Shown: positions 28,050 to 55,570 of the stretch, one piece after another | Position numbering within the stretch: position 1 is the stretch's first letter | How the letters are laid out: every line of letters starts with the position of its first letter | Source of the DNA: Bacillota bacterium | Lineage (GTDB): Bacteria > Bacillota > Halanaerobiia > B1SED10-174 | Length of the DNA stretch: 64,000 nt | Direction of reading: 5' to 3' | Assembly (NCBI GenBank): GCA_007122335.1 | Contig: SKTZ01000071.1 | Coordinates: forward strand, 2,524 to 66,523 | Translations under genes and position numbers: made by a program | The notes under the pieces: generated by a model | What the model saw: only the letters and a program-made list of their open reading frames with translations | Databases searched by the model: none | Told to the model about the DNA's origin: nothing

Positions 28050-28403
28050 CTAAGACATTAGTTCAAGCTGAGGGGCGTCAGCCCACAGTTTTTCCAGTTG
28101 ATAATATTCGCGAGCTTCTCGATGGAAAACGTGGACAATAACTTCTCCGTAATCCATTAAAACCCAGCGACTATCTTTTTCCCCTTCAATTCGAGCCGGG
28201 CTTATTTCCTGGACTCCCAAACCTTCTTTAATGCCTTTGACGATTGCTTGAACCTGTCTTTCATTGTTTCCACTGATTAAAATGAAATAATCGGCAACCA
28301 GGGAAATCCCCTGTAAGTCAATGGAAACAATATTATCCCCTTTCTTGTCTTCAGCCAGCCTGGCTATTTCCCTTGTTAATTCTTCTCCGTTTTTGATTGT
28401 CAA
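28050..28403 (-). CDS. rsfS: ribosomal silencing factor RsfS (Iojap)
   Basis: 117 aa. Conserved RsfS core (DYFVI.SG.N.RQ..AI...V). Confidence 0.85.
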   Translation of the reverse strand: MTIKNGEELTREIARLAEDKKGDNIVSIDLQGISLVADYFILISGNNERQVQAIVKGIKEGLGVQEISPARIEGEKDSRWVLMDYGEVIVHVFHREAREYYQLEKLWADAPQLELMS

Positions 28404-29575
28404 ATTGTTCCTCCTTCCTCATATCTTTTTTGATCCTCACCCAGAGTTATCCTTATTTCCCCTGAGTTTAACTCTTCATTTTCCCGGGGGACACCACCGA
28501 TCAAAGAAGACACCCTCAATGCTCCTTCAAGCCCTCCCGGGCCATAGTCAATCGAAGTATATTCATGGTCAAACCTTTCGGCGTTGCCCATCTTTCGTAC
28601 CGAAAAACCCCAGTATTCAAGGATTTCTCCCCTGTCTCCAGCAAGGCCAGAAATCCCCGCTCCATTTAAAACATCCACTTCATAACGAACATTTTCCAGG
28701 TAATCCTTGGTATTCAGCATGCTCAAAGAAACCATTTCAATCCCTTCTTCATTAGGAACCCAGTAAGAAATACCATTAATATATTCCGGCGTGCCAGGGA
28801 GAATGGTCATCTCAATTCTATCCCGGGGAAAATCAACCAGCATCTTTGATAACCTGACCATGTCCCGAAAAGGAAGATCAGTCCGGAAAAAATCGTTAAT
28901 CTCGCTTAACAGGTTTGGGATTTTAGGAATTATGCTCATTTTGAAGGCCTGGTCAATCAGGGCGTTCATAAACTGCTGTTGCCTTTCAATACGGCCAATA
29001 TCAGCCCTGATGGGTTCCCTGTACCGAACGTAATGCAGGGACTTCTCCCCATCCAAAACCTGTAAACCGGGTTGAATATTAATATAAAGATCTCCCGCTT
29101 CGTCGATGTAGTGCATTCTCTGTTTTACATTAAGCTCAACACCACCAAGGACATCTATAATATTAACAAAACCGTCAAAGTCTAATTCCATGTAAAAATG
29201 AATTGGAACGTTGAGCATTTCTTCGACAGTTTTTACCGTAAGGTCAATACCACCACGGGAATAAGCTGAGTTAATTTTGGAATAGTTAGAATAACCGGGA
29301 ATTTTTACCCTGGTATCCCGGGGCAGGGAAACAATACCCAGACCGTTTCCAACCAAGTCAGCGCTGACCAGGAAAAGAGTGTCCGGTCGGGGGATCCCAT
29401 CTGCTCCAGCATCATAGCCAATTACAAGAGCATTAACCAGTTTTTGATTGTCCTCATCCTGCAAAACCTTGAGCTCCTCTGAACTGAATAAATCAGCCAG
29501 ATAAATGCCTCCGGCAATAATCAGGACCAGGAAAACCACCCCGGCAATTTTAAAAACCTTTTTAAAATTTTTCAT
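28400..29575 (-). CDS. LytR-CpsA-Psr (LCP) family protein with C-terminal LytR_C domain
   Basis: N-terminal TM, LCP catalytic domain (conserved R/D residues), and a LytR_C tail. Confidence 0.75.
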   Translation of the reverse strand: MKNFKKVFKIAGVVFLVLIIAGGIYLADLFSSEELKVLQDEDNQKLVNALVIGYDAGADGIPRPDTLFLVSADLVGNGLGIVSLPRDTRVKIPGYSNYSKINSAYSRGGIDLTVKTVEEMLNVPIHFYMELDFDGFVNIIDVLGGVELNVKQRMHYIDEAGDLYINIQPGLQVLDGEKSLHYVRYREPIRADIGRIERQQQFMNALIDQAFKMSIIPKIPNLLSEINDFFRTDLPFRDMVRLSKMLVDFPRDRIEMTILPGTPEYINGISYWVPNEEGIEMVSLSMLNTKDYLENVRYEVDVLNGAGISGLAGDRGEILEYWGFSVRKMGNAERFDHEYTSIDYGPGGLEGALRVSSLIGGVPRENEELNSGEIRITLGEDQKRYEEGGTI

Positions 29576-34728: not shown

Positions 34729-35793
34729 TTAAATACTTTTGGAATCAGCTATTTCAATCATTGGTTCTCCAACAATAACTTCACCAACTATTATTGAAGA
34801 CGGTACATCGGCATCCTTTTCCAGTTCCTTTATTACACTTTCCACCTTCTCCGGTTTTACAGCTGCCAGTAACCCACCCGATGTCATTGCATCGCAGAGC
34901 AGAAACTTATGGTACCGGGGGGTATTGTTCCAGTTAACGTTGTTTTCCAAAAATTTAATATTCCGCAATGTTCCCCCGGGAACAACTCCTTTTTGGGCCA
35001 GGACCTCACTGCCGGCGATAAACCAATCCGAACTAATTATTAGCCTGGCCGCAGTTCCACTGGCCTCCATCATCTCAAAAAGGTGCCCCATAAGTCCAAA
35101 GCCAGTTATATCGGTCATGGCATTTACAGTGTCAAAATTCAATACTTTTGCCCCGGCTCTATTTAATGTAGCCATGATTTCTACGGCGTTCTGGATATCT
35201 TTTTCTTCTACCATTGCTCCTTTTACTCCCGTTGATAGAATTCCTGCACCGATCGGTTTAGTCATTACCAGCACATCCCCCGGACGGGCGCCTCCTTTTT
35301 TAATTATCCTCCGGGGGTGAATTAACCCGGTTGCAGAAAGCCCGTATTTTGGTTCATCATCATCCACTGTATGCCCGCCAATTAGAACAGCGCCAGCCTC
35401 CTCAACCTTTTCCTGCCCACCATTTAAAATTTCACCCAGGATTTCCAGGGGAATCTTCTGGGAAGGAAAGCAAACAACATTAAGAGCAGTAATTGGTTCT
35501 GCTCCCATTGCATAAAGGTCACTTAGAGCATTTGCAGCAGCTATTCTGCCAAAATCTCTTCCGTCGTCAACAATCGGTGTAAAAAAATCAATTGTCTGGA
35601 CCAAGGCCTGGTCCTCACTTATCTGGTAAATCCCCGCATCATCAATAATGTCCAGGCCTACCAGAACCTCTTTCCGAGATTGTGGTTGGGGTAATAGGGA
35701 AAGGATAGTTTTTAGGGCCTCCGGCCCCATTTTGCATCCTCAACCGGCTTTTTGCGAAAAACTTGTCAGGCGAACCTTTTTCCGGTTATTCAC
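34729..35793 (-). CDS. selD: selenide, water dikinase SelD; selenoprotein with in-frame UGA (Sec) at 35740-35742
   Basis: The listed ORF (start 35730) lacks the SelD N-terminal active site. Reading upstream in frame gives GTG-NNRKKVRLTSFSQKAG-U(TGA)-GCK-MGPEAL..., which matches the SelD consensus RLTxxSxxAG(C/U)GCKI. GGAGGTG RBS 7 nt upstream. A GGGCC-GGA-GGCCC hairpin starts 12 nt after the UGA, consistent with a bacterial SECIS. Confidence 0.85.
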
Positions 35794-37180
35794 TTTCCTT
35801 CACCTCCTGCGCAATCCTGGCTAGTTCTGTTTTTAGGATGTCCTCTTCCTCTGGTGAAACTGTTCGCAGGTTAAATTCAATTTTCCCCTTAAAAACACTT
35901 GCAATTATTGGAATTTCAGCTTCTCTTAATTTCTGATGGAACTGGCTTAACTCCAAATTTTTCCCCCGAAGATGTAAAACCGGTCCTGGAATTGCTTCCT
36001 GGGGAAGAGTTCCTCCACCGCTAAATGAAGTCCCCTCTCCGATTGACATTTTAAAATTGGAGGGGATTTTTTCTTCAAGGTACGTGTGGATATCTTCAGT
36101 CCTTTCTAGAAGCTCTTTTTCTGTCATTTGAAACATTTTATAAGTTGGGATGAAATCAGGCTGATACAGCAGGTATTGGCGCAAAGTAGCTTCAAGTGCA
36201 GCCAGGGAAAGTTTATCAATTCTTAAAGCCCTCAACAGGTTGTTTCGGGCCATTTTATCAATTAAATCCTTGCGACCCAGGATAATTCCGGCCTGGGCAC
36301 CGCCCAAAAGCTTATCCCCGCTAAAAGAAACTAAATCTAACTTCCCTGAAGTAATTTCGTTTAAAGATGGCTCCCCAGGTAAAGGCCAGAGGGATCCGCT
36401 TCCCAGGTCATAATAGGATATCAGATTATGCTTTTGGGCCAGAGACCCCAGGTCTTCAACTCCCACTTCTTCAGTAAACCCAGTGATACGATAGTTTGAT
36501 GGGTGGACCTTAATTAAAAGTTTTGTGTCCTCTCCTATAGCTTCCTCGTAATCCTCTAGGTGGGTTCTGTTGGTGGTACCCACCTCTCGCAGGCTAACCC
36601 CTCCCTTGGACATAACTTCTGGGATCCTGAAAGAACCACCGATCTCAACAAGTTCACCCCGGGATATTATTGCTTCTCCACCCCGGGCCAGGGTATCAAG
36701 AACGAGTAAAACAGCCGCAGCATTATTATTAACAATAAGTGCTTTTTCCGCTCCAGTCAGGAGTGACAGAAGAAAACCACAAATATCCTGTCTTGAACCT
36801 CTTTTCCCCGTGGAGAGATCATATTCCAGGTTGCAATAACCGGAACCTATCCATCTTAGGTTTTTTATCCCCGCGGGGGGGATGGGTGCCCTGCCCAGGT
36901 TTGTATGCAAAATAATCCCGGTTGCATTTACCACTTTTTGCAACCGGGGAGTTAAAAGTCCCTGGCAACGCAAAATCACTTCCTGGAATATATCCTCCGC
37001 ACCCTTCCAGAGCAGTTTTTCTGAAGAGTCTTGAGATATTTCCGTCCGGAGTTCTTCGACAATAAACCGGACTAATCTTTTGACACCAGGAGAAGATGGT
37101 ACCCCCTGTTTTTTCAGTTCACCCAATACGCTATCAATTCCAGGAAGCTGCCTTAATAAAGAATTATCCATCATGATCAA
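35786..37180 (-). CDS. selA: L-seryl-tRNA(Sec) selenium transferase
   Basis: 464 aa. LHTNLGRA, VNNNAAAVLL, SRGELVEIGGSFRIP and the PLP-lysine FSGDKLLGG are all conserved with E. coli SelA. Its stop overlaps the selD start by 8 nt. Confidence 0.85.
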   Translation of the reverse strand: MIMMDNSLLRQLPGIDSVLGELKKQGVPSSPGVKRLVRFIVEELRTEISQDSSEKLLWKGAEDIFQEVILRCQGLLTPRLQKVVNATGIILHTNLGRAPIPPAGIKNLRWIGSGYCNLEYDLSTGKRGSRQDICGFLLSLLTGAEKALIVNNNAAAVLLVLDTLARGGEAIISRGELVEIGGSFRIPEVMSKGGVSLREVGTTNRTHLEDYEEAIGEDTKLLIKVHPSNYRITGFTEEVGVEDLGSLAQKHNLISYYDLGSGSLWPLPGEPSLNEITSGKLDLVSFSGDKLLGGAQAGIILGRKDLIDKMARNNLLRALRIDKLSLAALEATLRQYLLYQPDFIPTYKMFQMTEKELLERTEDIHTYLEEKIPSNFKMSIGEGTSFSGGGTLPQEAIPGPVLHLRGKNLELSQFHQKLREAEIPIIASVFKGKIEFNLRTVSPEEEDILKTELARIAQEVKESE

Positions 37181-37580: not shown

Positions 37581-38456
37581 CTAGATCAACCCGGCATCAA
37601 AAGTGGTAATGGAGATTGTTTCTGGGCCGCTGTGGCAGGCTATTGTTGGGGCAAGGCGGGCGCGAATTGTAACAAACTCTTTATCCAGCTTTTCCTCGAT
37701 TAAACTCCTGACCTGTTCAATACTTTTTTCTTGAGGGATGCCTCCCCAAGCCAGCAGAAGAACCGGTTTATCAGCAGTACTCATTCTTTCTAAAGCTAGT
37801 TCAGCCATTTTCTTATAAAGCCCTTTGCTTCCCCTGACCTTATCTAAGGGAGCGATTTCTCCTTTAGAAACTGTCAGTATCGGCTTGATATTTAAAAACC
37901 CTGCAACAAATCCCTTAGCCCTTCCTACTCGACCGTTTTTCACCAGGTAATCCATGGTTTCTACCGAAAAGGCTTCAAAAATAGGTTCCTCTTCTTTAAG
38001 CTGTTCTATAAACTGAATAATTTTATCCTTGTCTTTTTCTTTCTTCATTTTTTCTACAACTGCATAGACAAAAAGCCCTAAAGGAGGACCAACCTGGCCG
38101 GTATCAATTGGTATTATTTCCATATCAGTTACCATTTCTGACGCAAGTCTTGCGGCCTGAACTGTCCCACTCATTTTATGGGAAATATGTAGGGAAAGGA
38201 CTGTGTCGTACCCTTCTTCTTTTAAGCTTTCAAATACTTCAACAAAATCTTTGGCCTGGGGTTGGGTCGTCCGGGGTAGGTTTTCCATTTCTCCAGCCAT
38301 CCGATCATAAAATTCTTCGTGGCTGATGGTTATCTGGTCGACAAACTCCTCTTCCCCGAAATGGATATGCATGCTTACCCTATGGATATTATGTTCGGCG
38401 AAAAAGTCCTGGGGCAAATCACAACTGGTATCAGTAACAATAGCAATTTTACTCAT
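37581..38456 (-). CDS. DegV-family fatty-acid-binding protein
   Basis: IAIVTDS..DLP N-terminus and the DegV fold length. Confidence 0.8.
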   Translation of the reverse strand: MSKIAIVTDTSCDLPQDFFAEHNIHRVSMHIHFGEEEFVDQITISHEEFYDRMAGEMENLPRTTQPQAKDFVEVFESLKEEGYDTVLSLHISHKMSGTVQAARLASEMVTDMEIIPIDTGQVGPPLGLFVYAVVEKMKKEKDKDKIIQFIEQLKEEEPIFEAFSVETMDYLVKNGRVGRAKGFVAGFLNIKPILTVSKGEIAPLDKVRGSKGLYKKMAELALERMSTADKPVLLLAWGGIPQEKSIEQVRSLIEEKLDKEFVTIRARLAPTIACHSGPETISITTFDAGLI

Positions 38457-43318: not shown

Positions 43319-44626
43319 ATGTACCATAAAATCGGCCTGCCCGGAGCAGTAATTATGACGGTGGGAACGGTTATCGGGGCCGGAATTTTTATCCTGATTG
43401 GCCCGCTGGGAGTAACAACAGGGCCCGGTCTTTTTTTCTGTTATTTAGCAGCTCTGATTGTTGCCGCAGGATCTGCCGTTTGCTATGCCCAGGTTGCAGC
43501 AGTTTTCCCAACTACAGCAGCGACCTATCGGTATGCCAGGATGTTTTACTCCGATTACATAGGTTTCATTGTGGGGTGGCTGAGGTGGATAACAGCTTGT
43601 TATGCACTAGCTTTAATGGGAATGGGTTTCGCAGATTACCTGGGTCCCCTTTTGCACCTGGACAAAAAATTTCTGGCCCTAGGCATCATGCTTTTGTTCT
43701 ACATAGTAAATGTCCTGGGACTAAAAACAACCCAGCTTGTGCAGGGTATGCTTGTTATTATTGTGGTAAGCGGATTGCTTGCATTCACGGGATGGGGGCT
43801 TCCCTCCACGGACCTTTCCCGCCTTGGGGGTTGGACTGAAGTTGGTTGGGGTCCGCTTCTCCAGGGAACCGCTGCAGCTTTTTTTGCTTACACAGGGCTT
43901 TATTTTATTGCGGAAATCGGGGATGAGGTAAAAAATGCCCAGCGAAATATTCCCCTGGCCATTTTCCTGTCCTCCATAATCCTGGGAGCAATTTATCTCT
44001 CCGTAGCAATCGTTTTTTCCGGAGGACTGGGCTGGGAAAAGATAAAAGAAATCCAGCCTAACCTTGCCCAGGCCGCAGGAGTTCTGCTCCCCCCACAACT
44101 TGCAAGCCTGGTTCGTTTGAGTGCTGTTGTGGCCATTTTTACTCCGATCAATGCCATTTATACTGCCAGCAGCCGGCTTCTTTTCAGTCTTGCAAAGGAC
44201 GGCTTTTTACCTAAATTCCTGACCCGGACCAATTATTTTGGCGCCCCGGGCCTTGCGCTGACCATTAACTTAATTTTGGGGATAATTGTCGTTCTCTTTG
44301 ATCTTTCTATTATTTTTTTAGGAGCCTTAAACTCCCTGGTAGCCCTTGTTGGCATGGCCTTAACAGCCGGAGCTTCTCTCCAGCTTTCCCGGCGTTTTCC
44401 CCGGGAGGTAGCCCGGGCCCCAATGATTTTAAAAAAAGGAACTCTGCGCTTTTGGGCCCTTTTTACCATAATTTCCACAATTCTCTTAACTATTTCTTCT
44501 TTCTGGGAAGATCCTAAAATTTTCCTTTCCCTTGCTCTTTGGCTTGGAGCGGGCAGCTTTTATTTTCACCTTCATAAAAAATATTTCCAGCAGAAAATTC
44601 TGGAAAGAAAAAATAACGAGGCGTGA
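43319..44626 (+). CDS. APC-family amino-acid permease (12 TM)
   Basis: 435 aa. N-terminal GTVIGAGIF amino-acid permease signature. Confidence 0.8.
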   Translation: MYHKIGLPGAVIMTVGTVIGAGIFILIGPLGVTTGPGLFFCYLAALIVAAGSAVCYAQVAAVFPTTAATYRYARMFYSDYIGFIVGWLRWITACYALALMGMGFADYLGPLLHLDKKFLALGIMLLFYIVNVLGLKTTQLVQGMLVIIVVSGLLAFTGWGLPSTDLSRLGGWTEVGWGPLLQGTAAAFFAYTGLYFIAEIGDEVKNAQRNIPLAIFLSSIILGAIYLSVAIVFSGGLGWEKIKEIQPNLAQAAGVLLPPQLASLVRLSAVVAIFTPINAIYTASSRLLFSLAKDGFLPKFLTRTNYFGAPGLALTINLILGIIVVLFDLSIIFLGALNSLVALVGMALTAGASLQLSRRFPREVARAPMILKKGTLRFWALFTIISTILLTISSFWEDPKIFLSLALWLGAGSFYFHLHKKYFQQKILERKNNEA

Positions 44627-44763
44627 ATTTCAAAAAATTTATAACTCCGGGTAAGAGATAATATTTCAAACCATGTTTTTATTTACAACCTAAATTTATT
44701 ATGATAGATTAAAAAAACAAAGTCAATATCCACGCTTTTTCTATCTGGAAGGGAGTTTTTTTT

Positions 44764-45702
44764 ATGGAGGAAATTCTGCAGGTTGAAAACCTTTCAAAAA
44801 GTTTCGGGGGAAAAATTGCGGTTGACAATATCAGCTTTTCTGTCCCCAGGGGACAAATTCTCGGGTTTTTGGGGCCCAACGGAGCAGGAAAAACCACTTC
44901 TTTAAGGATTATTATGGGGATATTAAATCCGGATAAAGGGGATATTTTCTTTAACTTTAACGGCAAACCCTCTTCCCTGGACAAAACCAAAGTGGGTTAT
45001 CTCCCCGAAGAGAAAGGTCTTTATGAAGAAGCAAAGGTTCTTCCTAACCTGATTTATATTGGTCAATTGAAAGGGATGAAAAAAAACAGTGCCCGCCAAA
45101 AAGCCCAAAAATGGCTGGAAAGGGTTGGGCTTGAAGAATATGCCAATCAGAAATTCGATAAGCTTTCCCGGGGGATGAAACAGAAAGTCCAATTCATCGC
45201 CTCAGTTCTCCACGATCCCGAGTTTTTAGTCCTGGATGAGCCTTTTGCCGGGCTTGATCCGGTTAACCAAAATTTTTTCATGCAGGTTGTCAGGGAACTC
45301 CAAGAACAGGGCAAAACCATTCTTTTTTCCGCCCATCAAATGAACCTTGTTGAAGAAATCTGCGATTCAATTTTTTTGATTAATAAGGGGAAACAAATAC
45401 TTAGCGGTAACCTCAAGGAAATAAAAGAGAGCTATAAAGAATATAATGTGAACATCTATTTTAATCCAGAGAACGATCCTTCTTTTTTACTCGACAACCC
45501 GGATATTCAGATTAACAAAAAAAATATCGGTTACCTCAATTTTACTTTCCAGGGGGATAACAAAATTAACAAACTAATTGACCAAATCACGGCAAATCTT
45601 GATCTAAAAGAAATTCAGGCTTCACCCCCTCCTCTTCACGATATCTTTATCAACGCCGTCCAGGAAAGGGGTGAAGAAGTCGATGAAAATCAGTTTGCCT
45701 AA
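44764..45702 (+). CDS. ABC transporter ATP-binding protein (ABC-2 type)
   Basis: Walker A GPNGAGKTT, LSRGMKQK signature, Walker B LVLDEP. Confidence 0.85.
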   Translation: MEEILQVENLSKSFGGKIAVDNISFSVPRGQILGFLGPNGAGKTTSLRIIMGILNPDKGDIFFNFNGKPSSLDKTKVGYLPEEKGLYEEAKVLPNLIYIGQLKGMKKNSARQKAQKWLERVGLEEYANQKFDKLSRGMKQKVQFIASVLHDPEFLVLDEPFAGLDPVNQNFFMQVVRELQEQGKTILFSAHQMNLVEEICDSIFLINKGKQILSGNLKEIKESYKEYNVNIYFNPENDPSFLLDNPDIQINKKNIGYLNFTFQGDNKINKLIDQITANLDLKEIQASPPPLHDIFINAVQERGEEVDENQFA

Positions 45703-46891
45703 TGCCAAAAAAGTAGCGAAATGGGAATTCACCAAGGGAATTCGCACTCCCATGTTTTTGGTCCTTACTTTTGTTATTCCCCTGCTCATCCTGGGAATTG
45801 GTAGTTTAGAATTTATTACCCAGGAATTCAGGCAGGCCCAAACAATGGAATTAGCCTTAATTGACAATACTGGAGAAATTGGACCCCGGCTTTTAGAACA
45901 GACAGAGAACACCAATATTCAGTTAGAAATTTTTACGGGGAGCCAGGAGGAATTAAAACAAAAAACCCTCAATGGGGCCTATGACGGGTTTCTCATTATA
46001 ACCCCGGAAAACCTCCGGGAAGGGCATTTTCAGATTTTCTCCGGTGATCCCCGGAATATTGCCCCCGCCCAGATCCGGCCCCACCTGGAAAAAGTAATTA
46101 CCGAATTCCGTCTGGAATCTCTTGGGCTGGTAAAAGAGGAGATCTCCTCTGCCACAAGGCCGGTTTCCCTGGGCGTCCAGGCCCTGGAAGAGGAGGCTCC
46201 CTTTGCTATTGCAAGGTTTTTGGTCCCTATTGCCCTGGGCATGATCCTTCTTTTATCGGTAATTTTTTCCGGGCAGATGTTAATGTATGGGGTAATAAAA
46301 GAAAAAAGAAATCGCGTGGTGGAAATCCTTCTATCCTCTATTTCTTCTTTTGACCTTCTTACCGGGAAAATAATGGGTTATGGGCTGCTCAGTCTTTTAC
46401 AGGTAGGAATATGGACCACAGCGGGGCTCCTTACTGCTTCAAGATTTGTTAACTTCCAGGACCTGGGTTTGTCCCTGGAAATTATCCTGCCTCCCTTTAT
46501 TATTTTCCTGTTAGGATATATAATGCTGGCTTCTTTATTCGCCGCACTTGGGGCAACAATGAAGGAAGCAGAAGAAGGTTCTCAGGCTCAGGGGTTAATA
46601 ATTCTAATCCCCATGATCCCCTTATTTCTCTCAGGTCTTTTAATAACAGCTCCCAATGCCCTCTGGGTAAGGATTTTTACTCACATTCCACCATTTATTC
46701 CTGCTATGGCCCTTTTACGGATGGGAGCAACAACTCTTCCCTGGTGGGAAATGGGGACCATCGTCCTGGCCCTGTTACTTTCAATTGTCCTCTTTATTTA
46801 CATCGGGAGCAGAATTTTTTCCCGTGGTATTCTTCAGTATGAAGCAATTGGTTTTAAAGATTTATCCAAGATTCTTCGGAAAAAATATTAA
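45671..46891 (+). CDS. ABC-2 family transporter permease
   Basis: 406 aa. One N-terminal TM, a large extracytoplasmic loop, and 5 C-terminal TM helices. Translationally coupled to the ATPase by a 32-nt overlap. Confidence 0.75.
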   Translation: MKKSMKISLPNAKKVAKWEFTKGIRTPMFLVLTFVIPLLILGIGSLEFITQEFRQAQTMELALIDNTGEIGPRLLEQTENTNIQLEIFTGSQEELKQKTLNGAYDGFLIITPENLREGHFQIFSGDPRNIAPAQIRPHLEKVITEFRLESLGLVKEEISSATRPVSLGVQALEEEAPFAIARFLVPIALGMILLLSVIFSGQMLMYGVIKEKRNRVVEILLSSISSFDLLTGKIMGYGLLSLLQVGIWTTAGLLTASRFVNFQDLGLSLEIILPPFIIFLLGYIMLASLFAALGATMKEAEEGSQAQGLIILIPMIPLFLSGLLITAPNALWVRIFTHIPPFIPAMALLRMGATTLPWWEMGTIVLALLLSIVLFIYIGSRIFSRGILQYEAIGFKDLSKILRKKY

Positions 46892-46909
46892 AATTAATGG
46901 AGGGATTCG

Positions 46910-48688
46910 ATGACCAGAATTAATATTGAAAAACTGGCTTCATTGCCGTCATTTTATTTACCCCGCCTGTCACCAAAAGGCGACCTTCTGGCTTTTTTTG
47001 GAGATTATTCGGGCCAGATGGAAATCTATATAAAAGACCTGAAAACAGGCGACACCAGACAGGTAACAAATGGGGATGCCCCTCGCTCCATAAGGGCCCA
47101 GTTTATCTGGCATCCAGATAATAAGCATATTATCTTTCCCAGGGACCGGGACGGGGACGAAAACCATAACCTGTTTTTACTTAATACCAAAACGGGGAAC
47201 ATAAAGCAATTAACCAGTTATTCTGCCCAGCATTATCCTGTAGATGTGGACAAAGATGGTAAATACTTAAGCCTGACCTCCAACCGGGAAGGGCAGTTAA
47301 ATCTTTTTCTACTCAACCTAGATTCTGGAGAACTGGAGCAAATGACTTCTTTTCCCAGGCCTGTTTCCGGAGGAAACTGGTCTCCCGATGGTAAGGGAAT
47401 ATATTTCAACACAAACGAAACTCAGGACACCAGGAATAATGACATTTACCTGCTAAATTTAGAAAACAGGACTACCCAGAAGATTTTTTCTTCAGGGGCA
47501 GGCCATAGTGACCATTGCCAAAAGGTATCACCCTGCGGAAAATATCTGGGCCTGAACACGGAAAAAGAGGGTCGGACCCAGGCTGCAATCCTGCACCTTG
47601 AAACGGGGACAGTTTATTATCCGAAAACCGGTGAAGCAGAAAGCCATTTCATGGATTTTAGTCCCAGCAGTGAAAAGTGTTTGATCCGGATAAATCACAA
47701 CGCCAGTCTCAGGTTAAGGGAATATGATCTCTTTACGGGTAAAATCAGCAACCCCGAACCAGAAAGTGGTTTTACTTCCTGGGGAGAATATAAATCAGAA
47801 GAAGAAATATTTGCCCTGTTTGAAGATACTACCCATCGCCCAGAACTTATTTCCTTCCCAGGAAAAAAGTTGATTATCCCCGCTTCTTATAACGGGTACA
47901 AACCAGAAGATTTTGTTCCAGGCAGGTTAATTTCCTACCCTTCTATTGATGGTCTTGAAATCCAGGCCATTCTCTATTTGCCCCCAGGAAAAGGACCTCA
48001 TCCAGCAATTGTTATGGTCCACGGGGGGCCACTTTCCCAGGATTTCCTGGCCTTCAATCCTTTCTGCCAGTTTTTAACCAGCCTTGGTTTTGCTGTTTTA
48101 CGCCCCAATTACCGGGGTTCAACCGGTTATGGAAAAGAATTCCGGGAAAAAATCCTTGGTGACATCGGGGGAATGGAGGCCGAAGATGTAGCCCGGGGAG
48201 CAAAATTTCTGGAGAGTTTACCGGAAATTGATTCGGAAAGAATTCTCTGTATTGGAGGGAGTTACGGTGGCTACATGACCTACTGGCAGCTGGTAACCCG
48301 CCCTGAACAGTGGGCAGGAGGAATTGCCTGGATTGGAATAACTGATTGGGAAAAGCTATTCGATTCCTCGGTTGAGCATTTTAAATATTTACTGGAACAT
48401 ATTTTCAAAGCTCGTCCCGAAAAATCAAAACTCTACCGGGAAAGATCTCCCATTCACCTTGCTGAAAATTTAAGGGCCCCCCTGCAAATAATTCACGGGG
48501 TTAACGACCCCCGAGTTCCCCTTGAGCAGGCTTTAATTTTCCGGGATAAATTAAAGGAGTTGGGTTATGAAGAAAACCAAGACTTTTTCTATGAGGAACT
48601 GACTGAAGAGGGTCATGGAACCCAGGATATCCAGCAAAAAATCCGGATTTTCAAGCTCATGGAAAAATTCCTGGAAAAGTTTAAATAA
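46910..48688 (+). CDS. S9 family serine peptidase (prolyl oligopeptidase/acylaminoacyl-peptidase-like) with N-terminal beta-propeller
   Basis: TolB-like propeller repeats plus a C-terminal alpha/beta hydrolase domain with GGSYGG nucleophile elbow, Asp and His. Confidence 0.85.
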   Translation: MTRINIEKLASLPSFYLPRLSPKGDLLAFFGDYSGQMEIYIKDLKTGDTRQVTNGDAPRSIRAQFIWHPDNKHIIFPRDRDGDENHNLFLLNTKTGNIKQLTSYSAQHYPVDVDKDGKYLSLTSNREGQLNLFLLNLDSGELEQMTSFPRPVSGGNWSPDGKGIYFNTNETQDTRNNDIYLLNLENRTTQKIFSSGAGHSDHCQKVSPCGKYLGLNTEKEGRTQAAILHLETGTVYYPKTGEAESHFMDFSPSSEKCLIRINHNASLRLREYDLFTGKISNPEPESGFTSWGEYKSEEEIFALFEDTTHRPELISFPGKKLIIPASYNGYKPEDFVPGRLISYPSIDGLEIQAILYLPPGKGPHPAIVMVHGGPLSQDFLAFNPFCQFLTSLGFAVLRPNYRGSTGYGKEFREKILGDIGGMEAEDVARGAKFLESLPEIDSERILCIGGSYGGYMTYWQLVTRPEQWAGGIAWIGITDWEKLFDSSVEHFKYLLEHIFKARPEKSKLYRERSPIHLAENLRAPLQIIHGVNDPRVPLEQALIFRDKLKELGYEENQDFFYEELTEEGHGTQDIQQKIRIFKLMEKFLEKFK

Positions 48689-49726: not shown

Positions 49727-50197
49727 TTATTTATTATCCTGAATTCTTTTTTCTGACCCCAGTTCTTTTTTTACCAAACCTTCAATTCGCCCAAAAGACA
49801 GCTCCTTTTCTTCACCACCCAGTTGAAGAAAACCTTTGGTTAAATCTTCCACAGTAGATTCAAGTAAAATCATAAACTGCTGTAGAGCGAAATTATAACG
49901 AGGATCTTCAGGGTCTTTGCCAAATAGAGAATGCAAAAATCCTTCCAGCATCTGGTCCATATCCCAGAGTTTAATATGTAACAGTTCATGAATAATGGTT
50001 TCTTCGAGATTTTCGCTGGTCGGATTGAAAACGTTAACAAGCAGAATAGCTTTTTTATCATCCCGATCAACTTTAACATCGCCGGTCTTCCGCCATTTCT
50101 GGTTAACAACCTCTAACCGAATATCCCAGTCCCGCAGTCGTAAAATCTCCTGCCACTTTTCCAGGTAAGAAAGTAAATCTTTTTCCTTGAATTCCAT
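49727..50197 (-). CDS. hypothetical protein with HExxH motif (possible SprT/WLM-like minimal zinc metallohydrolase)
   Basis: 156 aa. IIHELLHIKLWDMD contains HExxH followed by an acidic residue. No other recognisable domain. Confidence 0.35.
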   Translation of the reverse strand: MEFKEKDLLSYLEKWQEILRLRDWDIRLEVVNQKWRKTGDVKVDRDDKKAILLVNVFNPTSENLEETIIHELLHIKLWDMDQMLEGFLHSLFGKDPEDPRYNFALQQFMILLESTVEDLTKGFLQLGGEEKELSFGRIEGLVKKELGSEKRIQDNK

Positions 50198-51157: not shown

Positions 51158-51443
51158 CTTCCAGTTCTCCTTTAAATTAATTTTCCCGAGAAAAACGTTC
51201 TTTTTATAATAAGGATATTTTATCCTTTGCAAATTTCGTCACCCCTCCTTTCCATTCCTTTGAAAAACCAGTTTTTATTTTCATACTCCTCTTTTTATTT
51301 TTTAAAAACCGGAATTCAAACTATCAATCCAACTTTATGTATACTTTTTCTTTTACCTGGTTTATAATGTTGATGAATGAAAAAATTTTAAAAAAATTAA
51401 CTGCAATTTCTCAATCCCCCAAAATGAAGCGGAGGTTTTTTAA

Positions 51444-52769
51444 TTGGGTAAACTAAAAATAATATTATTCTTCTTCATTCTAACTATTCTTTTCTCCACT
51501 ACAGTTTTTGGCAATTCACAGGATAATTCCAGTTCTCTGCAAAAGATTGCCGTTTTAAACTTTTCTGTTCTCGATGAAAAGGGGAACCTGATTGATCCCC
51601 TGCATCTCCAGCATACCGAATTATTAAGCCTGTCCCGGACCATGGCCATGGGAATTGCCTCCCGGCTGGTTCAGTACAGGAACTTTGACGTTTATGACCC
51701 AATGTTATTGCGGGAAAAGAAAAATATTGCTCCCTTCCCTCCTGAAATGACTCCTTATGAGCAGGCTCAAATTCTCCTGACTCAGCACGGTTTCGACCAG
51801 GTAATCACAGGATCAATTACTTCAATGTCCAATATTGTTGTTCTTGGCGTCCAGCGGTTTGATTTAGAGGATGATAAACCCCGATTGCTTGGTTCATCCA
51901 TGGCCACGGCTCCTCGAACGAGCGATGCCCCCGCCCAGATCGATTCGCTGCTTTCCATTTTATTTCCGCCCGAAACTCCTGTTATCGAGCGTTCCATCGA
52001 ACAAATTTTTGTCGCCCCCACCATGCTCAGGATCAGTCTTGGTTCTTCACATAAGATAAACCCTCTCGCTTTAGATAGTCTGGGTCGTCCTGTTCCAGAC
52101 CCCACTTTCTTATATATTTCAAGTGACGAAAGCAGGGTTCATGTCGATGATAATGGAGTTATAACGGCCTTAAAACCTGGGACAACTACCATCAGTATTA
52201 GAGGAGTAAGCCGAAGCGCAAGCTCTGGTTCTCCGGCAACAATGACTGTGGTTGTTGTTCCGCCCGTTTTTGGTATCCGGGTAGGCTCATTAATCCCCGA
52301 CGCTTTTGAAGGTGGGAATTTCCCCGTTAAGATGGGTTTCAGGTTTACTCCCTCATTTGACCAGGGAGGTCCCAAAGACCCTCTTGCCGAGGCTTCTAAA
52401 GCAGCCAGCGCTGATCCTACAAACCCCCTGGCTTATGTTGGAACTTTCTTTAGTTCCCTGTTTTCCAGCGGGATAATGACTTTTGATCTGGATTTTGATC
52501 CCAGTGATGAACTTCTATTTGCATTAAGTGGAATTCAGAGAACCTCCAGTGGTTTCATTGGCACTGGTGTTGGTTATGCAACTCCCCTGGGGATGAGTGA
52601 AACAAAGGGTTTTGTTTTCAGGTTTACAGCCGGAACCCAGATATTTTCTTTTTCCCGGGTAACTCTGCCCGTGGAAACCAACATAGATATGATTTTCCCA
52701 ACCAGCGGAACAGGTCGACCGTCCTTTCGCTTCGGGATCAATTTTGGTATCGATCTTTTTCCTCTTTAA
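51444..52769 (+). CDS. secreted protein of unknown function, paralog A (signal peptide, CsgG/LpoB-like N-domain, Big_2 Ig-like domain, beta-rich C-terminus)
   Basis: 441 aa. TTG start with GGAGG RBS and a hydrophobic signal peptide. IAVLNFSVLDEKGN...FDQVITGSI is an alpha/beta domain of CsgG/LpoB/TolB-N type. LRISLGSSHKI...LKPGTTTISIRGVS is Big_2-like. The C-terminal ~190 aa show alternating hydrophobic beta-strand periodicity and end in FRFGINFGIDLFPL. Confidence 0.6.
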   Translation: MGKLKIILFFFILTILFSTTVFGNSQDNSSSLQKIAVLNFSVLDEKGNLIDPLHLQHTELLSLSRTMAMGIASRLVQYRNFDVYDPMLLREKKNIAPFPPEMTPYEQAQILLTQHGFDQVITGSITSMSNIVVLGVQRFDLEDDKPRLLGSSMATAPRTSDAPAQIDSLLSILFPPETPVIERSIEQIFVAPTMLRISLGSSHKINPLALDSLGRPVPDPTFLYISSDESRVHVDDNGVITALKPGTTTISIRGVSRSASSGSPATMTVVVVPPVFGIRVGSLIPDAFEGGNFPVKMGFRFTPSFDQGGPKDPLAEASKAASADPTNPLAYVGTFFSSLFSSGIMTFDLDFDPSDELLFALSGIQRTSSGFIGTGVGYATPLGMSETKGFVFRFTAGTQIFSFSRVTLPVETNIDMIFPTSGTGRPSFRFGINFGIDLFPL

Positions 52770-52775
52770 TAATCC

Positions 52776-52812
52776 GCACCTGCCTCTGCAGGTGCTTTTT
52801 TGTTTTTTGAAA
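52776..52812 (+). terminator. intrinsic terminator after paralog A
   Basis: GCACCTGC-CTCT-GCAGGTGC perfect hairpin followed by TTTTTTGTTTTTT. Confidence 0.85.
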
Positions 52813-52941
52813 AGCAATAATAGGAAATTATTTCTTTTTGCTATACTTACCTCGGGCTTTAGGGTATAATTATTTTTAAACAGAGTTTGCTGGAAATTTT
52901 GTTTTTTTATTGCCATAGTTTTATTTTAAAGGGGGCTTTTT

Positions 52942-54267
52942 ATGTTTAAATTAAAAACCTTTCTATTGGTTCTTTGCCTGGTTTGTTTAATATCTTTACC
53001 AGCAGAGGCCGGGAATCTAAACATTGCAGAACAAAAAGAGAAAATAGCTGTCCTGAATTTTTCTATTCTTGATGAACAAGGAAACCTATTAGATCCCCTT
53101 TCCCTTGGAAACGCAGAAATAATAACCCTTTCTCGTTCAATGCCCCTGGGAGTTGCTTCCAGGTTAGTCCAATTCGGTAATTTCGAAGTATATGACCATA
53201 TGTATCTTAAAGAAACCATTGAGGTAATTCCATTTCCGGTTGATATGCCTCCCTTTGAGCAGGCTCGAATTTTACTTACAGAATATGGTTTTGACCAGGT
53301 AATTATCGGTTCTATTGCCCCCATGCAAAACCTTGTAATTATTGGTCTGCAGCGATATGATTATTTTCGAGACAAACCTCGTATCCTTGGTTCAGCAATG
53401 ACAACTGCCCCCCGAACAACAGATGTGCCTGCTCAAATCGACCCTCTACTTACAAAGCTATTCCCACCAGAAATTCCAGTTATTGAAAGCCCCATAGACC
53501 AGGTTTATGTTATCCCCAGTCTGCTTCGGATTAACCTCGGTTCATCCCATCAAATTTCGGCCATCGCCCTGGACAGTCTGGGACGCCCCCTAACAGACCC
53601 CACGTTTTTATATATTTCAGGTGACGAATCTAAGGTTTTTGTTGATGAAGGAGGCAGAATCAAGGGCCTGCAGCCCGGGACCACTACTGTCAGCGTGCGG
53701 GGAATCAGCCGGACTGCTCGTTCTGGCCCCCCTGCAACCATGACCGTAGTTGTAGTTCCTCCCGCCTTTGGGATCCGGCTGGGAACCTTACTCACCGACC
53801 GCTCCGGAACTGATAGTTTTCCCATTCGGATGGGATTCAGATTCACTCCATCCTTTGACCAGAGTTTGCAGAAACAAGATCTCCCGGCCACACCCGCCCC
53901 CGCTGCAGCAACTGATCCCACAAACCCCCTGGCCTTCATCGGCTCCTTTTTCAGCTCTCTATTAACCAGTGGATTAATGACCTTCGACCTTGATTTTGAC
54001 CCCAATGATGAGATCCTTTTCGCCCTAAATGGTATCCAGAGATCCTCAACCGGTTACATCGGGACAGGGGTGGGGTACGCCACTCCTCTGGGTGAAAGCG
54101 AAACCCAGGGTTTTGTTTTCCGCTTTACTGCCGGGGTTCAGGTCCGTTCAATGTCAAGGTTGAGTTTCCCCGTGGAAGCAATTGTTGACATGATCATTCC
54201 CACTACGGGAGACATCCGGCCTTCATTCCGCCTGGGAGTCAACCTGGGAATTGATCTTTTCCCCTGA
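52942..54267 (+). CDS. secreted protein of unknown function, paralog B (same architecture as 51444-52769)
   Basis: 441 aa, about 60% identical to paralog A over the full length with the same domain order. Own promoter region and terminator. Confidence 0.6.
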   Translation: MFKLKTFLLVLCLVCLISLPAEAGNLNIAEQKEKIAVLNFSILDEQGNLLDPLSLGNAEIITLSRSMPLGVASRLVQFGNFEVYDHMYLKETIEVIPFPVDMPPFEQARILLTEYGFDQVIIGSIAPMQNLVIIGLQRYDYFRDKPRILGSAMTTAPRTTDVPAQIDPLLTKLFPPEIPVIESPIDQVYVIPSLLRINLGSSHQISAIALDSLGRPLTDPTFLYISGDESKVFVDEGGRIKGLQPGTTTVSVRGISRTARSGPPATMTVVVVPPAFGIRLGTLLTDRSGTDSFPIRMGFRFTPSFDQSLQKQDLPATPAPAAATDPTNPLAFIGSFFSSLLTSGLMTFDLDFDPNDEILFALNGIQRSSTGYIGTGVGYATPLGESETQGFVFRFTAGVQVRSMSRLSFPVEAIVDMIIPTTGDIRPSFRLGVNLGIDLFP

Positions 54268-54279
54268 TAGTTTAAAAAT

Positions 54280-54308
54280 CACCTGCCCAGTGGGCAGGTG
54301 ATTTTTTA
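54280..54308 (+). terminator. bidirectional intrinsic terminator between paralog B and the DUF123 gene
   Basis: CACCTGCCC-AGT-GGGCAGGTG perfect hairpin flanked by an A-run and a T-run. Confidence 0.85.
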
Positions 54309-54689
54309 TTCTTTACCGGGTAGAGGATGGGATCCGGGAAAATAATATAAATGGGAAGGACAATTGCAATCTGAAGAACCAAAACCCGGCATTATGACCT
54401 CTCCTCCCTCGGCGGCAAGAATTTCTGCGATTTGGCATTCTGAACCCATATTTTCGGGATATAAACGGAGGGAAACAGGAAAAGCCCTGCTGGAAAGATA
54501 ATCAATGTGCCACCTTTTTTTCTTGTGAGAACTTAAATGGCGGGCTACTCTGGACCGGATCCCTTTTTGGGCCCTACCCACATAAAAATAAAATCCAGGC
54601 GGGAAATATTCCCGCCCTTTTTTACCCACTGTTATCTCCTGTCCTGAAAACAGATTTAGCTTTAAACAGTAAAATTTATAACCCACCAA
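54306..54689 (-). CDS. DUF123 protein (GIY-YIG-like nuclease superfamily)
   Basis: GFYFYVGRAQKG...RVARHLS.HKKKRWHIDYL and C-terminal GFGSSDCNCPSHLYYF match the DUF123 family, which is mostly archaeal. Confidence 0.6.
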   Translation of the reverse strand: MVGYKFYCLKLNLFSGQEITVGKKGREYFPPGFYFYVGRAQKGIRSRVARHLSSHKKKRWHIDYLSSRAFPVSLRLYPENMGSECQIAEILAAEGGEVIMPGFGSSDCNCPSHLYYFPGSHPLPGKE

Positions 54690-54721: not shown

Positions 54722-55570
54722 TTATTTGAAATACATGCAGACTCCGACAACTCCTGGACCGGAATGGACTCCAAGGGTTGGTCCAATATCTCCAAAGAAA
54801 GAGGCCTCAATTTCGAAAGCCTGTTCTAAAGCCTGCTGCATTTTCTTTCCCATTTCCTGGGCATCCCCCTGAGCAATGGCCAGACCCCCGGGTTCTCGTC
54901 CCTGAGAATAATCCTGGAATTTTCTCACCACTTCCCTGATTACCTGGGGTTTGTTACGGGCCCGGCCTGCAGGTGCCACTCCCTCTGGGACTAACTGGAG
55001 AATGGGTTTAACTTTTAATATGGAACCCATCAGACTTTTGGCTTTACTTATCCTGCCCCCCAGATACAGGTATTTTAAACTGTCCAGGGTAAAATATGTT
55101 GCACTGTTATCCCGGACACTCTGGAGATGTTCCAAAACCTGGTCAGAAGAATATCCCTTTTTGATAGCATTTACCGCTTCCCTGATCTGAAGCCCAATGC
55201 CCAGGCTAACTGTATAAGAATCAAAAATATGGATTGCACCTTCCACTTTCTCTCGGGCCAACTGTGCAGCATTTATGGTCCCGCTCAAACTTGAAGATAA
55301 GTGGATAGAGATAATTTTACGATAATCTTTTAATAACTCCTGGTAAACACGGATAAAATCCTCGGGAGGTGGTTGTGATGATTTAGGCAGGGTATCGGAA
55401 GAACGCAAACGCTTGTAGAATTCTGCTGGTTTAATATCTTCGCCATCTCGATATTCCCCGTCAGGGAAAATTACCCGCAGGGGAACAATTTTTATATTAT
55501 GTTCTCGGGCAAAATCCTGGGGTAAATCAGCAGTGCTATCTGTTACGAGGGCTATATCCTTCATATTCAA
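54722..55570 (-). CDS. DegV-family fatty-acid-binding protein (second copy)
   Basis: IALVTDSTADLP N-terminus and the DegV fold. Confidence 0.8.
   Translation of the reverse strand: MNMKDIALVTDSTADLPQDFAREHNIKIVPLRVIFPDGEYRDGEDIKPAEFYKRLRSSDTLPKSSQPPPEDFIRVYQELLKDYRKIISIHLSSSLSGTINAAQLAREKVEGAIHIFDSYTVSLGIGLQIREAVNAIKKGYSSDQVLEHLQSVRDNSATYFTLDSLKYLYLGGRISKAKSLMGSILKVKPILQLVPEGVAPAGRARNKPQVIREVVRKFQDYSQGREPGGLAIAQGDAQEMGKKMQQALEQAFEIEASFFGDIGPTLGVHSGPGVVGVCMYFK

Follow-up and report, generated by a model that had tools for sequence, protein, structure and literature searches.

Background

In Proteobacteria, proteins of the TolB-N/PelC/CsgG/LpoB fold class are nearly always tethered to the outer membrane (OM) by an N-terminal lipid or through binding to a lipoprotein. 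PelC is a 12-mer and CsgG a 9-mer, and flagellar H-ring proteins also form rings. Diderm Firmicutes (Negativicutes, Halanaerobiales and Limnochordia) occupy a central place in the debate on the origin and loss of the outer membrane. To our knowledge, their OM proteome is barely known beyond Veillonella and Acetonema, with almost nothing for Limnochordia and Halanaerobiales. OmpM of diderm Firmicutes, whose hosts lack Lpp, Pal and Lol, joins an N-terminal periplasmic module to a C-terminal OM barrel (PMC10628300); besides its SLH domain, OmpM has a coiled-coil stalk and a trimeric porin barrel of 16 strands (PMC13018214). Likewise, the elongated MlaD of Veillonella parvula carries a small C-terminal 10-strand barrel on a periplasmic module, where Proteobacteria use the OM lipoprotein MlaA (PMC10665443).

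The family described here, found as a tandem gene pair in the window (i.e. the whole 64-kb stretch of DNA that was analysed), shares with OmpM both its lineages and its module-plus-barrel logic. Yet, no SLH hit was recorded in 49 of 49 members and no long helix was predicted in the model. It is also unlike MlaD, which is built from unrelated domains (MCE with a long helix), is anchored in the inner membrane as well and is hexameric. Compared with the TolB-N/PelC/CsgG/LpoB/HpaA/GNA1162/FlgO class, the family lacks the lipobox Cys and would be attached by a barrel instead of a lipid; the C-terminal six-bladed beta-propeller of TolB (PD40 repeats) is missing too. Type Va and type Ve proteins also carry a soluble module and an OM barrel in a single chain, and intimin has Big-type Ig domains as the family has Big_2. 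However, their 12-stranded barrels, pore-spanning linkers and surface-exposed passengers, as well as the N-terminal barrel of type Ve, had no counterpart here.

Organization of the tandem locus

Two adjacent genes on the plus strand coded for proteins of 441 amino acids each that were 66% identical over their full length, confirming the original prediction of neighbouring paralogs of equal length. The features of the locus were the following:

51340-51368, plus strand: promoter-like box of gene 1, TATACTT-N16-TATAAT
51444-52769, plus strand: paralog 1 (ORF of 441 aa, TTG start, RBS GGAGG at 51431-51435)
52776-52795, plus strand: intrinsic terminator of gene 1, GCACCTGC-CTCT-GCAGGTGC followed by a T-run
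52842-52870, plus strand: promoter-like box of gene 2, TATACTT-N16-TATAAT
52942-54267, plus strand: paralog 2 (441 aa, ATG start, RBS GGGGG at 52931-52935)
54274-54306: bidirectional terminator common to gene 2 and the convergent DUF123 gene

The promoter-like box was detected through alignment; a generic sigma-70 scan yielded no convincing promoter on the plus strand. Its two matches were the only ones in the whole window, where 0.01 was expected, and it was unchanged in both paralogs and in the L014 orthologs. The terminator of gene 1 had an energy of -15.2 kcal/mol (z -4.84), and the bidirectional one, a 15-bp perfect stem between an A-run and a T-run, reached -23.5 kcal/mol on the plus strand and -24.0 on the minus strand. 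Each gene thus possesses its own promoter-like region and terminator, as first proposed, with a conserved box, an RBS and a perfect-stem terminator at both. The tandem pair arose as a clade-specific duplication in which promoter box, gene and terminator were copied together as one transcription unit; this duplication was confined to a soda-lake clade affiliated with Halanaerobiales.

Domain architecture

Both paralogs displayed the same architecture, and the anticipated domain order, i.e. a CsgG/LpoB/TolB-N-like domain, Big_2 and a beta-rich C-terminal module, proved correct. Upstream of the C-terminal module, the following segments were delineated, the domain limits of paralog 2 being carried over from paralog 1 by alignment:

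51444-51512, plus strand: type I signal peptide of paralog 1 (residues 1-23, ...VFG/NS, without lipobox)
Residues 1-23 of paralog 2: signal peptide (AEA/G)
51540-51962, plus strand: alpha/beta domain of paralog 1 (residues 33-173), TolB-N/PelC/CsgG/LpoB-like fold
~53038-53460, plus strand: alpha/beta domain of paralog 2
52002-52259, plus strand: Big_2 Ig-like domain of paralog 1 (residues 187-272)
~53500-53757, plus strand: Big_2 domain of paralog 2

The cleavage site of paralog 1 was placed by eye, and its model contained an N-terminal helix at residues 2-23. Throughout the family, N-termini displayed AxA-type type I sites without a conserved Cys; a lipoprotein reading was ruled out on the missing lipobox. 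When the N-terminal module was examined for the alpha/beta fold of the CsgG/PelC/LpoB class, this fold was present. Its closest folds included PelC, CsgG, TraT and the LPHT-ring protein, with TolB-N and LpoB equally close. At the sequence level, the domain gave no significant Pfam match (6 of 49 members gave weak FlgO hits, none better than E >= 0.008) and no NCBIfam or PDB sequence match, and its profile recovered only fragments of the same family, and no other architecture, among 5.8 billion proteins.

The second domain had an Ig-like beta-sandwich fold. The two copies in the window scored 17.7 and 15.6 bits against Big_2 (PF02368), for a gathering score of 22.8 bits; all 49 family members (49/49) matched this profile at E <= 1, the best value being 4.7e-8, and a precomputed PF02368 assignment was on record for most homologs. 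Sub-threshold Big_2 was the only match when the full protein and the profiles of the N-terminal domain and barrel were compared with Pfam, NCBIfam and PDB sequences. Neither the N-terminal domain nor the barrel matched anything in these collections, which agrees with the earlier statement that no characterised family has such an architecture; full-length homology to one, which had been named as a refutation, was not found there. The folds of the family are known ones, but as a sequence family and in the way its domains are combined it is new.

The C-terminal barrel

52266-52766, plus strand: 8-stranded beta-barrel of paralog 1 (residues 275-441, C-terminal GIDLFPL)
52422-52472, plus strand: Ser-rich amphipathic helix of paralog 1 (residues 327-343, NPLxxxSSFFxSLLTxG), located within the long segment that connects strand 2 to strand 3
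~53764-54264, plus strand: barrel of paralog 2

In the predicted structure of paralog 1, the C-terminal module formed a closed antiparallel 8-stranded barrel. In the alignment, one face of its strands was about 100% hydrophobic yet variable and the other consisted of invariant G/R/D/E/N. This dyad pattern, derived from the alignment and not from coordinates, corresponded to an entropy of 1.15 for the hydrophobic face against 0.25 for the polar/charged one (p = 1e-9), and did not appear in the soluble domains, which the alignment also covered and which served as negative control. A variable hydrophobic face combined with an invariant polar one is the mark of a barrel that faces lipid on the outside and is lined by conserved polar residues on the inside. 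An outer-membrane beta-barrel is the best explanation of the module. The suspicion of such a barrel in the original prediction is thereby supported, and the combination that would have spoken against it, a soluble C-terminal beta-sandwich without conserved co-occurrence, was not encountered.

Small 8-stranded OM barrels (OmpA N-domain, OprF-N, OmpX, OmpW, NspA and PagL) displayed no sequence relationship to this one. Fifteen barrel sequences searched against Pfam and the barrel searched against PDB sequences gave no hit at E <= 10, and hhalign against approximate sequences of OmpA-N and OmpX returned probabilities of 0.3% and 1.5%, respectively, a weak negative. In OmpA the barrel precedes the soluble domain, whereas here it is C-terminal to the soluble domains. 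In contrast to these small barrels, external loops did not exceed 12 aa, the periplasmic side carried a 41-residue insertion with the conserved Ser-rich helix, and the chain ended in F-P instead of a terminal aromatic. The Ser-rich helix had a constant length of 17 residues (entropy 0.73) and followed a variable segment, rich in P/T/A/S and 17-28 aa long; its position in the model is unreliable, pLDDT at residues 327-343 being low (37-53). The last strand read R-x-G-x-N-x-G-x-D-L-F, after which the chain closed with P, PL or Q; its Phe, 98% conserved, stood at position -2 or -3, the beta-signal having its aromatic at the terminus. Big_2 and strand 1 were linked by a PP dipeptide only.

Distribution and conservation

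Paralog 1 had 62 full-length homologs. When 1.84 billion representatives were searched exhaustively with a profile, multi-Big_2 repeat proteins dominated the output, and only six or seven more divergent full-length or near-full-length members were added. The family was found only in Limnochordia MAGs and in the soda-lake clade. Limnochordia and Halanaerobiales are diderm Firmicute lineages (PMC11456536, PMC10628300). The Firmicutes-like context that had seemed puzzling for such a protein was thus real, but the contradiction disappears because every host lineage is diderm. Outer-membrane marker genes did not occur within the 64-kb window.

Comparison of paralog 1 with its L013 ortholog gave a dN/dS of 0.045, and that of paralog 2 with its L014 ortholog 0.072; in orthologous comparisons values ranged from 0.025 to 0.07 in all three domains. 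The codon comparison of the two barrels with each other is invalid, a 1-residue indel shifting the register and synonymous sites being saturated. Both copies are maintained by purifying selection, contrary to the diversifying pressure initially suggested. An association with DUF123 had also been put forward; a functional link was rejected, this gene being convergent and conserved next to the pair in the soda-lake clade alone.

Putative function and alternative explanations

The family probably consists of integral OM proteins of diderm Firmicutes, in which the barrel would serve as anchor for a likely interaction or scaffold module. We infer membrane insertion, topology, anchor role and scaffold function along the following lines. 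Once the protein has been exported by Sec and its type I signal peptide removed, the last ~165 residues would fold in the outer membrane as an 8-stranded OmpA/OmpW-type barrel, presumably inserted by BamA. Its lumen would be packed with the invariant Arg/Asp/Glu network; such a filled lumen, together with very short external loops, suggests an anchor and not a channel. Since both termini of an even-stranded barrel are periplasmic, Big_2 would hang right below the membrane as a spacer, tied to strand 1 by Pro-Pro, and would keep the alpha/beta domain in the periplasm, several nanometres away from the membrane. In this position, the domain would most likely act in protein-protein interaction or as a scaffold at the OM/cell-wall interface. 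The N-terminal domains are thus most likely periplasmic, and the fused barrel may substitute for a lipid anchor in lineages without Lol.

Other readings of the same architecture were considered. A water-soluble 8-stranded barrel (an avidin-, YceI- or lipocalin-like ligand binder) in a secreted, periplasmic or wall-associated protein, possibly of a monoderm host, is improbable. The autotransporter analogy of the original prediction was not supported. Still more doubtful than a soluble barrel is a reading in which the barrel would export the alpha/beta and Big_2 domains to the surface, in the manner of a type V system or of the Helicobacter Hop adhesins, with the duplication providing surface variation. 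Hop proteins do have an 8-stranded "interrupted barrel", but carry their passenger as an insertion behind strand 1; in the present family, the N-terminal domains precede that strand. A barrel of only eight strands, lined inside by invariant Arg/Asp/Glu/Gly, has no pore through which a passenger could pass; the PP junction contains no linker helix that could span one, and neither Autotransporter nor other type V Pfam hits were obtained. Moreover, the fold relatives of the N-terminal domain are all periplasmic, and all three domains were under strong purifying selection, without any hypervariable surface region.

An oligomeric ring or secretion funnel, with the N-terminal domains forming a ring under the OM below a crown of small barrels and serving polymer export or flagellar/chemotaxis-associated envelope structures, refines the OM-anchor explanation and is not a true alternative to it. 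The ring-forming relatives (PelC, CsgG, TraT and the LPHT-ring protein), the weak FlgO hits and a block of DUF2207, family and MCP genes on one strand, which recurs at about a dozen loci of Limnochordia, are consistent with it. It is nevertheless quite unlikely: TolB-N and LpoB, equally close folds, occur as monomers, MCP genes have abundant paralogs and this synteny is restricted to one clade, and no polysaccharide-export or flagellar genes were adjacent in the window.

Implications for diderm Firmicutes

These proteins represent a lineage-restricted, strongly constrained candidate OMP, hitherto named only "Ig-like domain-containing protein" in databases. They would also provide, after OmpM and the barrel-bearing MlaD, a third example of Lol-less organisms anchoring a periplasmic module through a C-terminal barrel fused to it. 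If general, this pattern would offer a simple search rule for equivalents of the missing OM lipoproteins in diderm Firmicutes, and the family could serve as a phyletic marker of the outer membrane in uncultured Firmicute MAGs. Practical impact is modest pending a function. Tentatively, and with rather low confidence, the family might be one case of a general rule, by which Lol-less diderm Firmicutes fuse lipoprotein-type modules to a minimal 8-stranded barrel, here forming an oligomeric sub-OM ring or a connector from the OM to the wall or inner membrane, perhaps with the DUF2207 protein; if true, this would be a new envelope system specific to diderm Firmicutes. In many Limnochordia, the gene directly upstream of the family member coded for a DUF2207 membrane protein.

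Tandem gene pair and expression signals

Two adjacent open reading frames formed the tandem pair announced in the original prediction. The two proteins aligned over 409 residues with one gap (BLASTP, 66% identity and 83% positives), identity being somewhat above the earlier estimate. The features of the pair are as follows.

51340-51368, plus strand: TATACTT-N16-TATAAT upstream of gene 1 (pattern match)
51444-52769, plus strand: gene 1 (paralog 1), open reading frame of exactly 441 aa
52776-52795, plus strand: gene 1 terminator, perfect 8-bp stem and T-run, -15.2 kcal/mol, z -4.8
52842-52870, plus strand: TATACTT-N16-TATAAT upstream of gene 2 (pattern match)
52942-54267, plus strand: gene 2 (paralog 2), open reading frame of exactly 441 aa
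54274-54306, both strands: gene 2 terminator, perfect 15-bp stem, -23.5 kcal/mol on the plus strand and -24.0 on the minus strand

Gene 1 started with TTG (GGAGG 8 nt before) and gene 2 with ATG (GGGGG 6 nt before). As predicted, a perfect-stem hairpin with a T-run followed each gene. The second one is a symmetric bidirectional terminator, common to gene 2 and the convergent DUF123 gene (54306-54689), since A- and T-runs flank its stem. Both terminator stems displayed a CACCTGC/GCAGGTG core. This shared core suggests that the terminator was copied together with the gene; the duplication therefore covered a complete transcription unit, from promoter box through gene to terminator.

Since a generic promoter scan of the plus strand was unconvincing, both upstream regions were aligned with the orthologous regions of a second species (locus L014). 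In this alignment a TATACTT box was invariant and was followed, after 16 nt, by a perfect TATAAT. Across the 64-kb window the complete pattern had just two matches, against 0.01 expected, each of them upstream of a paralog, and it preceded every intact copy in related metagenome-assembled genomes (MAGs). It was unchanged across paralogs and species, although synonymous divergence was saturated. Because the -35-like box is non-canonical, the element might serve an alternative sigma factor or a regulator instead of being a plain sigma-70 promoter. Independent transcription of both genes, as originally proposed, was well supported by promoter boxes and terminators, as far as sequence alone can tell.

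Domain organization

An AlphaFold2 model of paralog 1 (49-sequence alignment, mean pLDDT 75.8) displayed the following elements.

Residues 2-23: N-terminal helix
Residues 33-173: alpha/beta domain
Residues 187-272: all-beta domain
Residues 275-283, 296-302, 344-351, 356-366, 371-381, 389-402, 406-419 and 427-438: eight barrel strands
Between strands 2 and 3: 41-residue connection with a helix at 328-342, where the model is poor
Residues 327-343 (52422-52472, plus strand): extent of this Ser-rich helix by conservation, with an equivalent in paralog 2

The predicted N-terminal domain resembled TolB-N, PelC, CsgG and HpaA, and the middle one Big_2 and S-layer Ig domains. Together with the domain matches, the model showed the initial domain assignment to be correct. 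Big_2 was the sole domain detectable by sequence (49/49 members, best E 4.7e-8), both window copies scoring under its gathering score. Apart from weak FlgO matches in 6/49 members, the N-terminal domain found no Pfam match, nor did the barrel sequences, and neither the N-domain profile nor the barrel profile matched PDB sequences. Comparison of the barrel profile with OmpA-N and OmpX gave hhalign probabilities below 2%, a weak negative. Signal peptides of the family were of type I and devoid of a lipobox.

Conservation of the barrel

Lipid exposure was assessed from the alignment columns. In all eight strands, one face was about 100% hydrophobic with I, L, V, F and M freely swapped, and the other carried invariant Gly, Arg, Asp, Glu, Asn, Thr or Gln (polar positions R279, R296, R300, D348, D350, E356, R366, R393, R405, E411, D415, R429, N433 and D437). 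Mean entropy in the barrel was 1.15 for hydrophobic columns versus 0.25 for non-hydrophobic ones (Mann-Whitney p = 1e-9). For the strands of the two soluble domains, Big_2 and the N-domain, that alignment gave a difference that was small, opposite in direction and not significant. A variable hydrophobic face opposed to a frozen charged one is the pattern expected of a barrel that touches lipid on its outside and packs its polar side into a salt-bridged lumen, as OmpA does; the reverse would be expected of a soluble barrel.

The chain stopped right after the last strand, at G-x-D-L-F-P (DLFP in 40/48 sequences; DLFQ, NFFQ or DLYP in divergent members). The conserved C-terminal aromatic residue occupied position -2 (-3 in proteins ending in FPL), not the very last one. 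If both termini lie in the periplasm, as is usual, the variable connections with indels are the odd ones (L1, L3 and L4), and T2 and T3 are fixed in length, a pattern that fits the canonical topology without proving it. External loops were all 12 residues or shorter. The sole long insertion was the connection of strands 2 and 3, predicted to be periplasmic. It comprised a variable P/T/A/S-rich stretch of 17-28 aa followed by the Ser-rich amphipathic helix (NPLxxxSSFFxSLLTxG), which was fixed in length and highly conserved. The helix was poorly modelled, at pLDDT 37-53, and none of the known small outer membrane (OM) proteins offers an obvious equivalent.

Selection on both copies

A word-indexed search recovered 62 full-length homologs (417-471 aa, identity down to 46%), none of them named beyond 'hypothetical' or 'Ig-like domain-containing protein'. 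Codon comparison with orthologs from two sister MAGs placed dN/dS at 0.025-0.07 for every one of the three domains, the signal peptide alone being relaxed. Both copies are consequently under strong purifying selection, contrary to the diversifying pressure initially suggested. Divergence between the paralogs was even (identity 61% in the N-domain, 69% in Big_2 and 67-91% in most barrel strands), with the lowest values in the signal peptide and first barrel loop.

Distribution and host envelope

Soda-lake metagenome contigs carry the locus of the window; gene 1 was identical at the DNA level in three of them (loci L007, L009 and L010), and GCA_003554285.1 was near-identical. A scan of 185,579 GTDB species representatives uncovered relatives at 25 loci, four in soda-lake MAGs labelled 'Halobacteroidaceae bacterium' (a family within order Halanaerobiales) and about twenty in MAGs of digester or UBA provenance titled 'Firmicutes/Bacillota bacterium', among them Candidatus Darwinibacter acetoxidans. 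NCBI labels a number of the homologs 'Limnochordia bacterium'. A few divergent members, full-length or nearly so and alike in architecture and C-terminus, came from an exhaustive profile search; their amino-acid composition is suggestive of high-GC hosts. Among named organisms, the window DnaK was closest to Halanaerobiales (Halothermothrix orenii 76%, several Halanaerobiales MAGs 75-76%, versus 70-72% for other Clostridia), a placement by similarity, not phylogeny, and indicative only.

An outer membrane was seen by TEM in Limnochordia, and the OM gene cluster occurs in 46/46 UBA Limnochordia genomes analysed (PMC11456536). Limnochordia, Halanaerobiales and Negativicutes are the diderm Firmicute lineages, and Lol, Pal and Lpp are confined to Gracilicutes or subsets thereof (PMC10628300). 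An OM-type barrel in a Firmicute is therefore straightforwardly explained, and the contradiction with the host seen in the original prediction disappeared. As a caveat, the window itself contained no OM marker genes; its housekeeping genes follow the usual gene order of Firmicutes.

Genomic context

Three features were conserved among soda-lake MAGs only: the tandem duplication, an upstream divergent methyltransferase and a downstream DUF123-DegV-DsrE-Fur-ZnuABC block. A functional link with DUF123, whose gene is convergent, was not borne out. In two sister MAGs of this clade the second copy was damaged, by an apparent frameshift near codon 379 (L013, 7545-8806) and by loss of an internal stretch of about residues 191-387 (L015, 7181-7849); both missed the exact promoter box. 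They could be true pseudogenes or artefacts of MAG assembly (collapse between paralogs).

Outside the soda-lake clade the gene was single-copy. About a dozen digester Limnochordia loci (L001 6181-11026; L003 4452-10980; also L017, L019, L021, L022, L028, L029, L031 and L032) displayed a same-strand block with, in this order, DUF2207 (a predicted membrane protein of about 600 aa), the family gene and a methyl-accepting chemotaxis protein. As just 30 nt separate DUF2207 from the family gene in L001, the DUF2207 protein is a possible inner-membrane partner. Neighbours were unrelated in other clades, and no family-wide operon partner was found across the compared loci.

Proposed localisation and architecture

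The best-supported interpretation is a BAM-type integral OM protein anchored by a narrow, plugged 8-stranded barrel, and we consider this localisation and architecture likely; any specific function could be proposed with low confidence only. An even strand number places both termini on the same side, which is periplasmic in all known OM proteins. An 8-stranded barrel with a filled lumen leaves no passage for a polypeptide, and Big_2 is linked to strand 1 by Pro-Pro only. For these reasons, Big_2 would be a spacer hanging into the periplasm with the TolB-N/PelC/LpoB-like module. Type V-like surface display of the N-terminal domains, the autotransporter analogy prompted by their position before a C-terminal barrel, is disfavoured by strand number, charged lumen, absence of a linker, periplasmic fold relatives and uniform purifying selection.

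Nearly all structural relatives of the N-terminal module are periplasmic and attached to the OM, either through a lipid anchor (PelC, CsgG, LpoB, HpaA and GNA1162) or via a lipoprotein (TolB-Pal). Lol is missing from diderm Firmicutes, and V. parvula is not known to have OM lipoproteins; its MlaD has a C-terminal OM barrel fused to it, in place of the lipoprotein MlaA (PMC10665443). A. longum, too, is devoid of Lol, along with BamB-E, LptE and MlaA (PMC13018214). With relatives attached by lipid or lipoprotein, no lipobox in the family, host lineages without Lol and MlaD as a precedent, the family would be a barrel-anchored counterpart of those periplasmic scaffold modules that are of lipoprotein type, at work where the OM meets the cell wall. 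The genes, their signals, the predicted folds, the asymmetry in conservation, the distribution and the purifying selection are what the sequences show; membrane insertion, topology, anchor role and scaffold function are inferred. By analogy with PelC or CsgG, an oligomeric ring would be an attractive refinement.

Like OmpM and barrel-bearing MlaD, the family would join a periplasmic module to an OM barrel at the C-terminus, in diderm Firmicutes without Lol, and it resembles OmpA reversed; it falls outside all three by sequence and domain content. The folds are all known, but the sequence family, which no database annotates, its domain combination and its lineage restriction are new. With OmpM, MlaD and SonA as precedents the finding is not startling; its relevance is to the envelopes of diderm Firmicutes and to how the trafficking of OM lipoproteins evolved.

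Other features of the window

SelA (L-seryl-tRNA(Sec) selenium transferase, E 1.5e-128) adjoined an AIR-synthase-related, SelD-like protein (34729-37180, minus strand), which implies selenocysteine use; neither tRNA-Sec nor any other Rfam family was detected in the window at gathering thresholds. Two DegV-family (fatty-acid-binding) paralogs occurred at 37581-38456 and 54722-55570 (both minus strand), one directly downstream of the DUF123 gene. LCP proteins are usually tied to wall-polymer attachment in monoderm Firmicutes, so the LytR_cpsA_psr (LCP) and LytR_C protein at 28400-29575 (minus strand) is notable in a putatively diderm host. GC skew was negative over 1-64000 (-0.03 to -0.24) and large ORFs lay mostly on the minus strand, the paralog pair and block 43319-48688 being among the few plus-strand genes. 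The interval from CutA1 to the methyltransferase, immediately upstream of the pair, contained a conserved 156-aa ORF without Pfam match (49727-50197, minus strand). A tiny ORF in this interval (52 aa in L007, 7280-7438; 55 aa at the same position with a Gly_zipper match in L011 and L012) was syntenic with it within the soda-lake clade.
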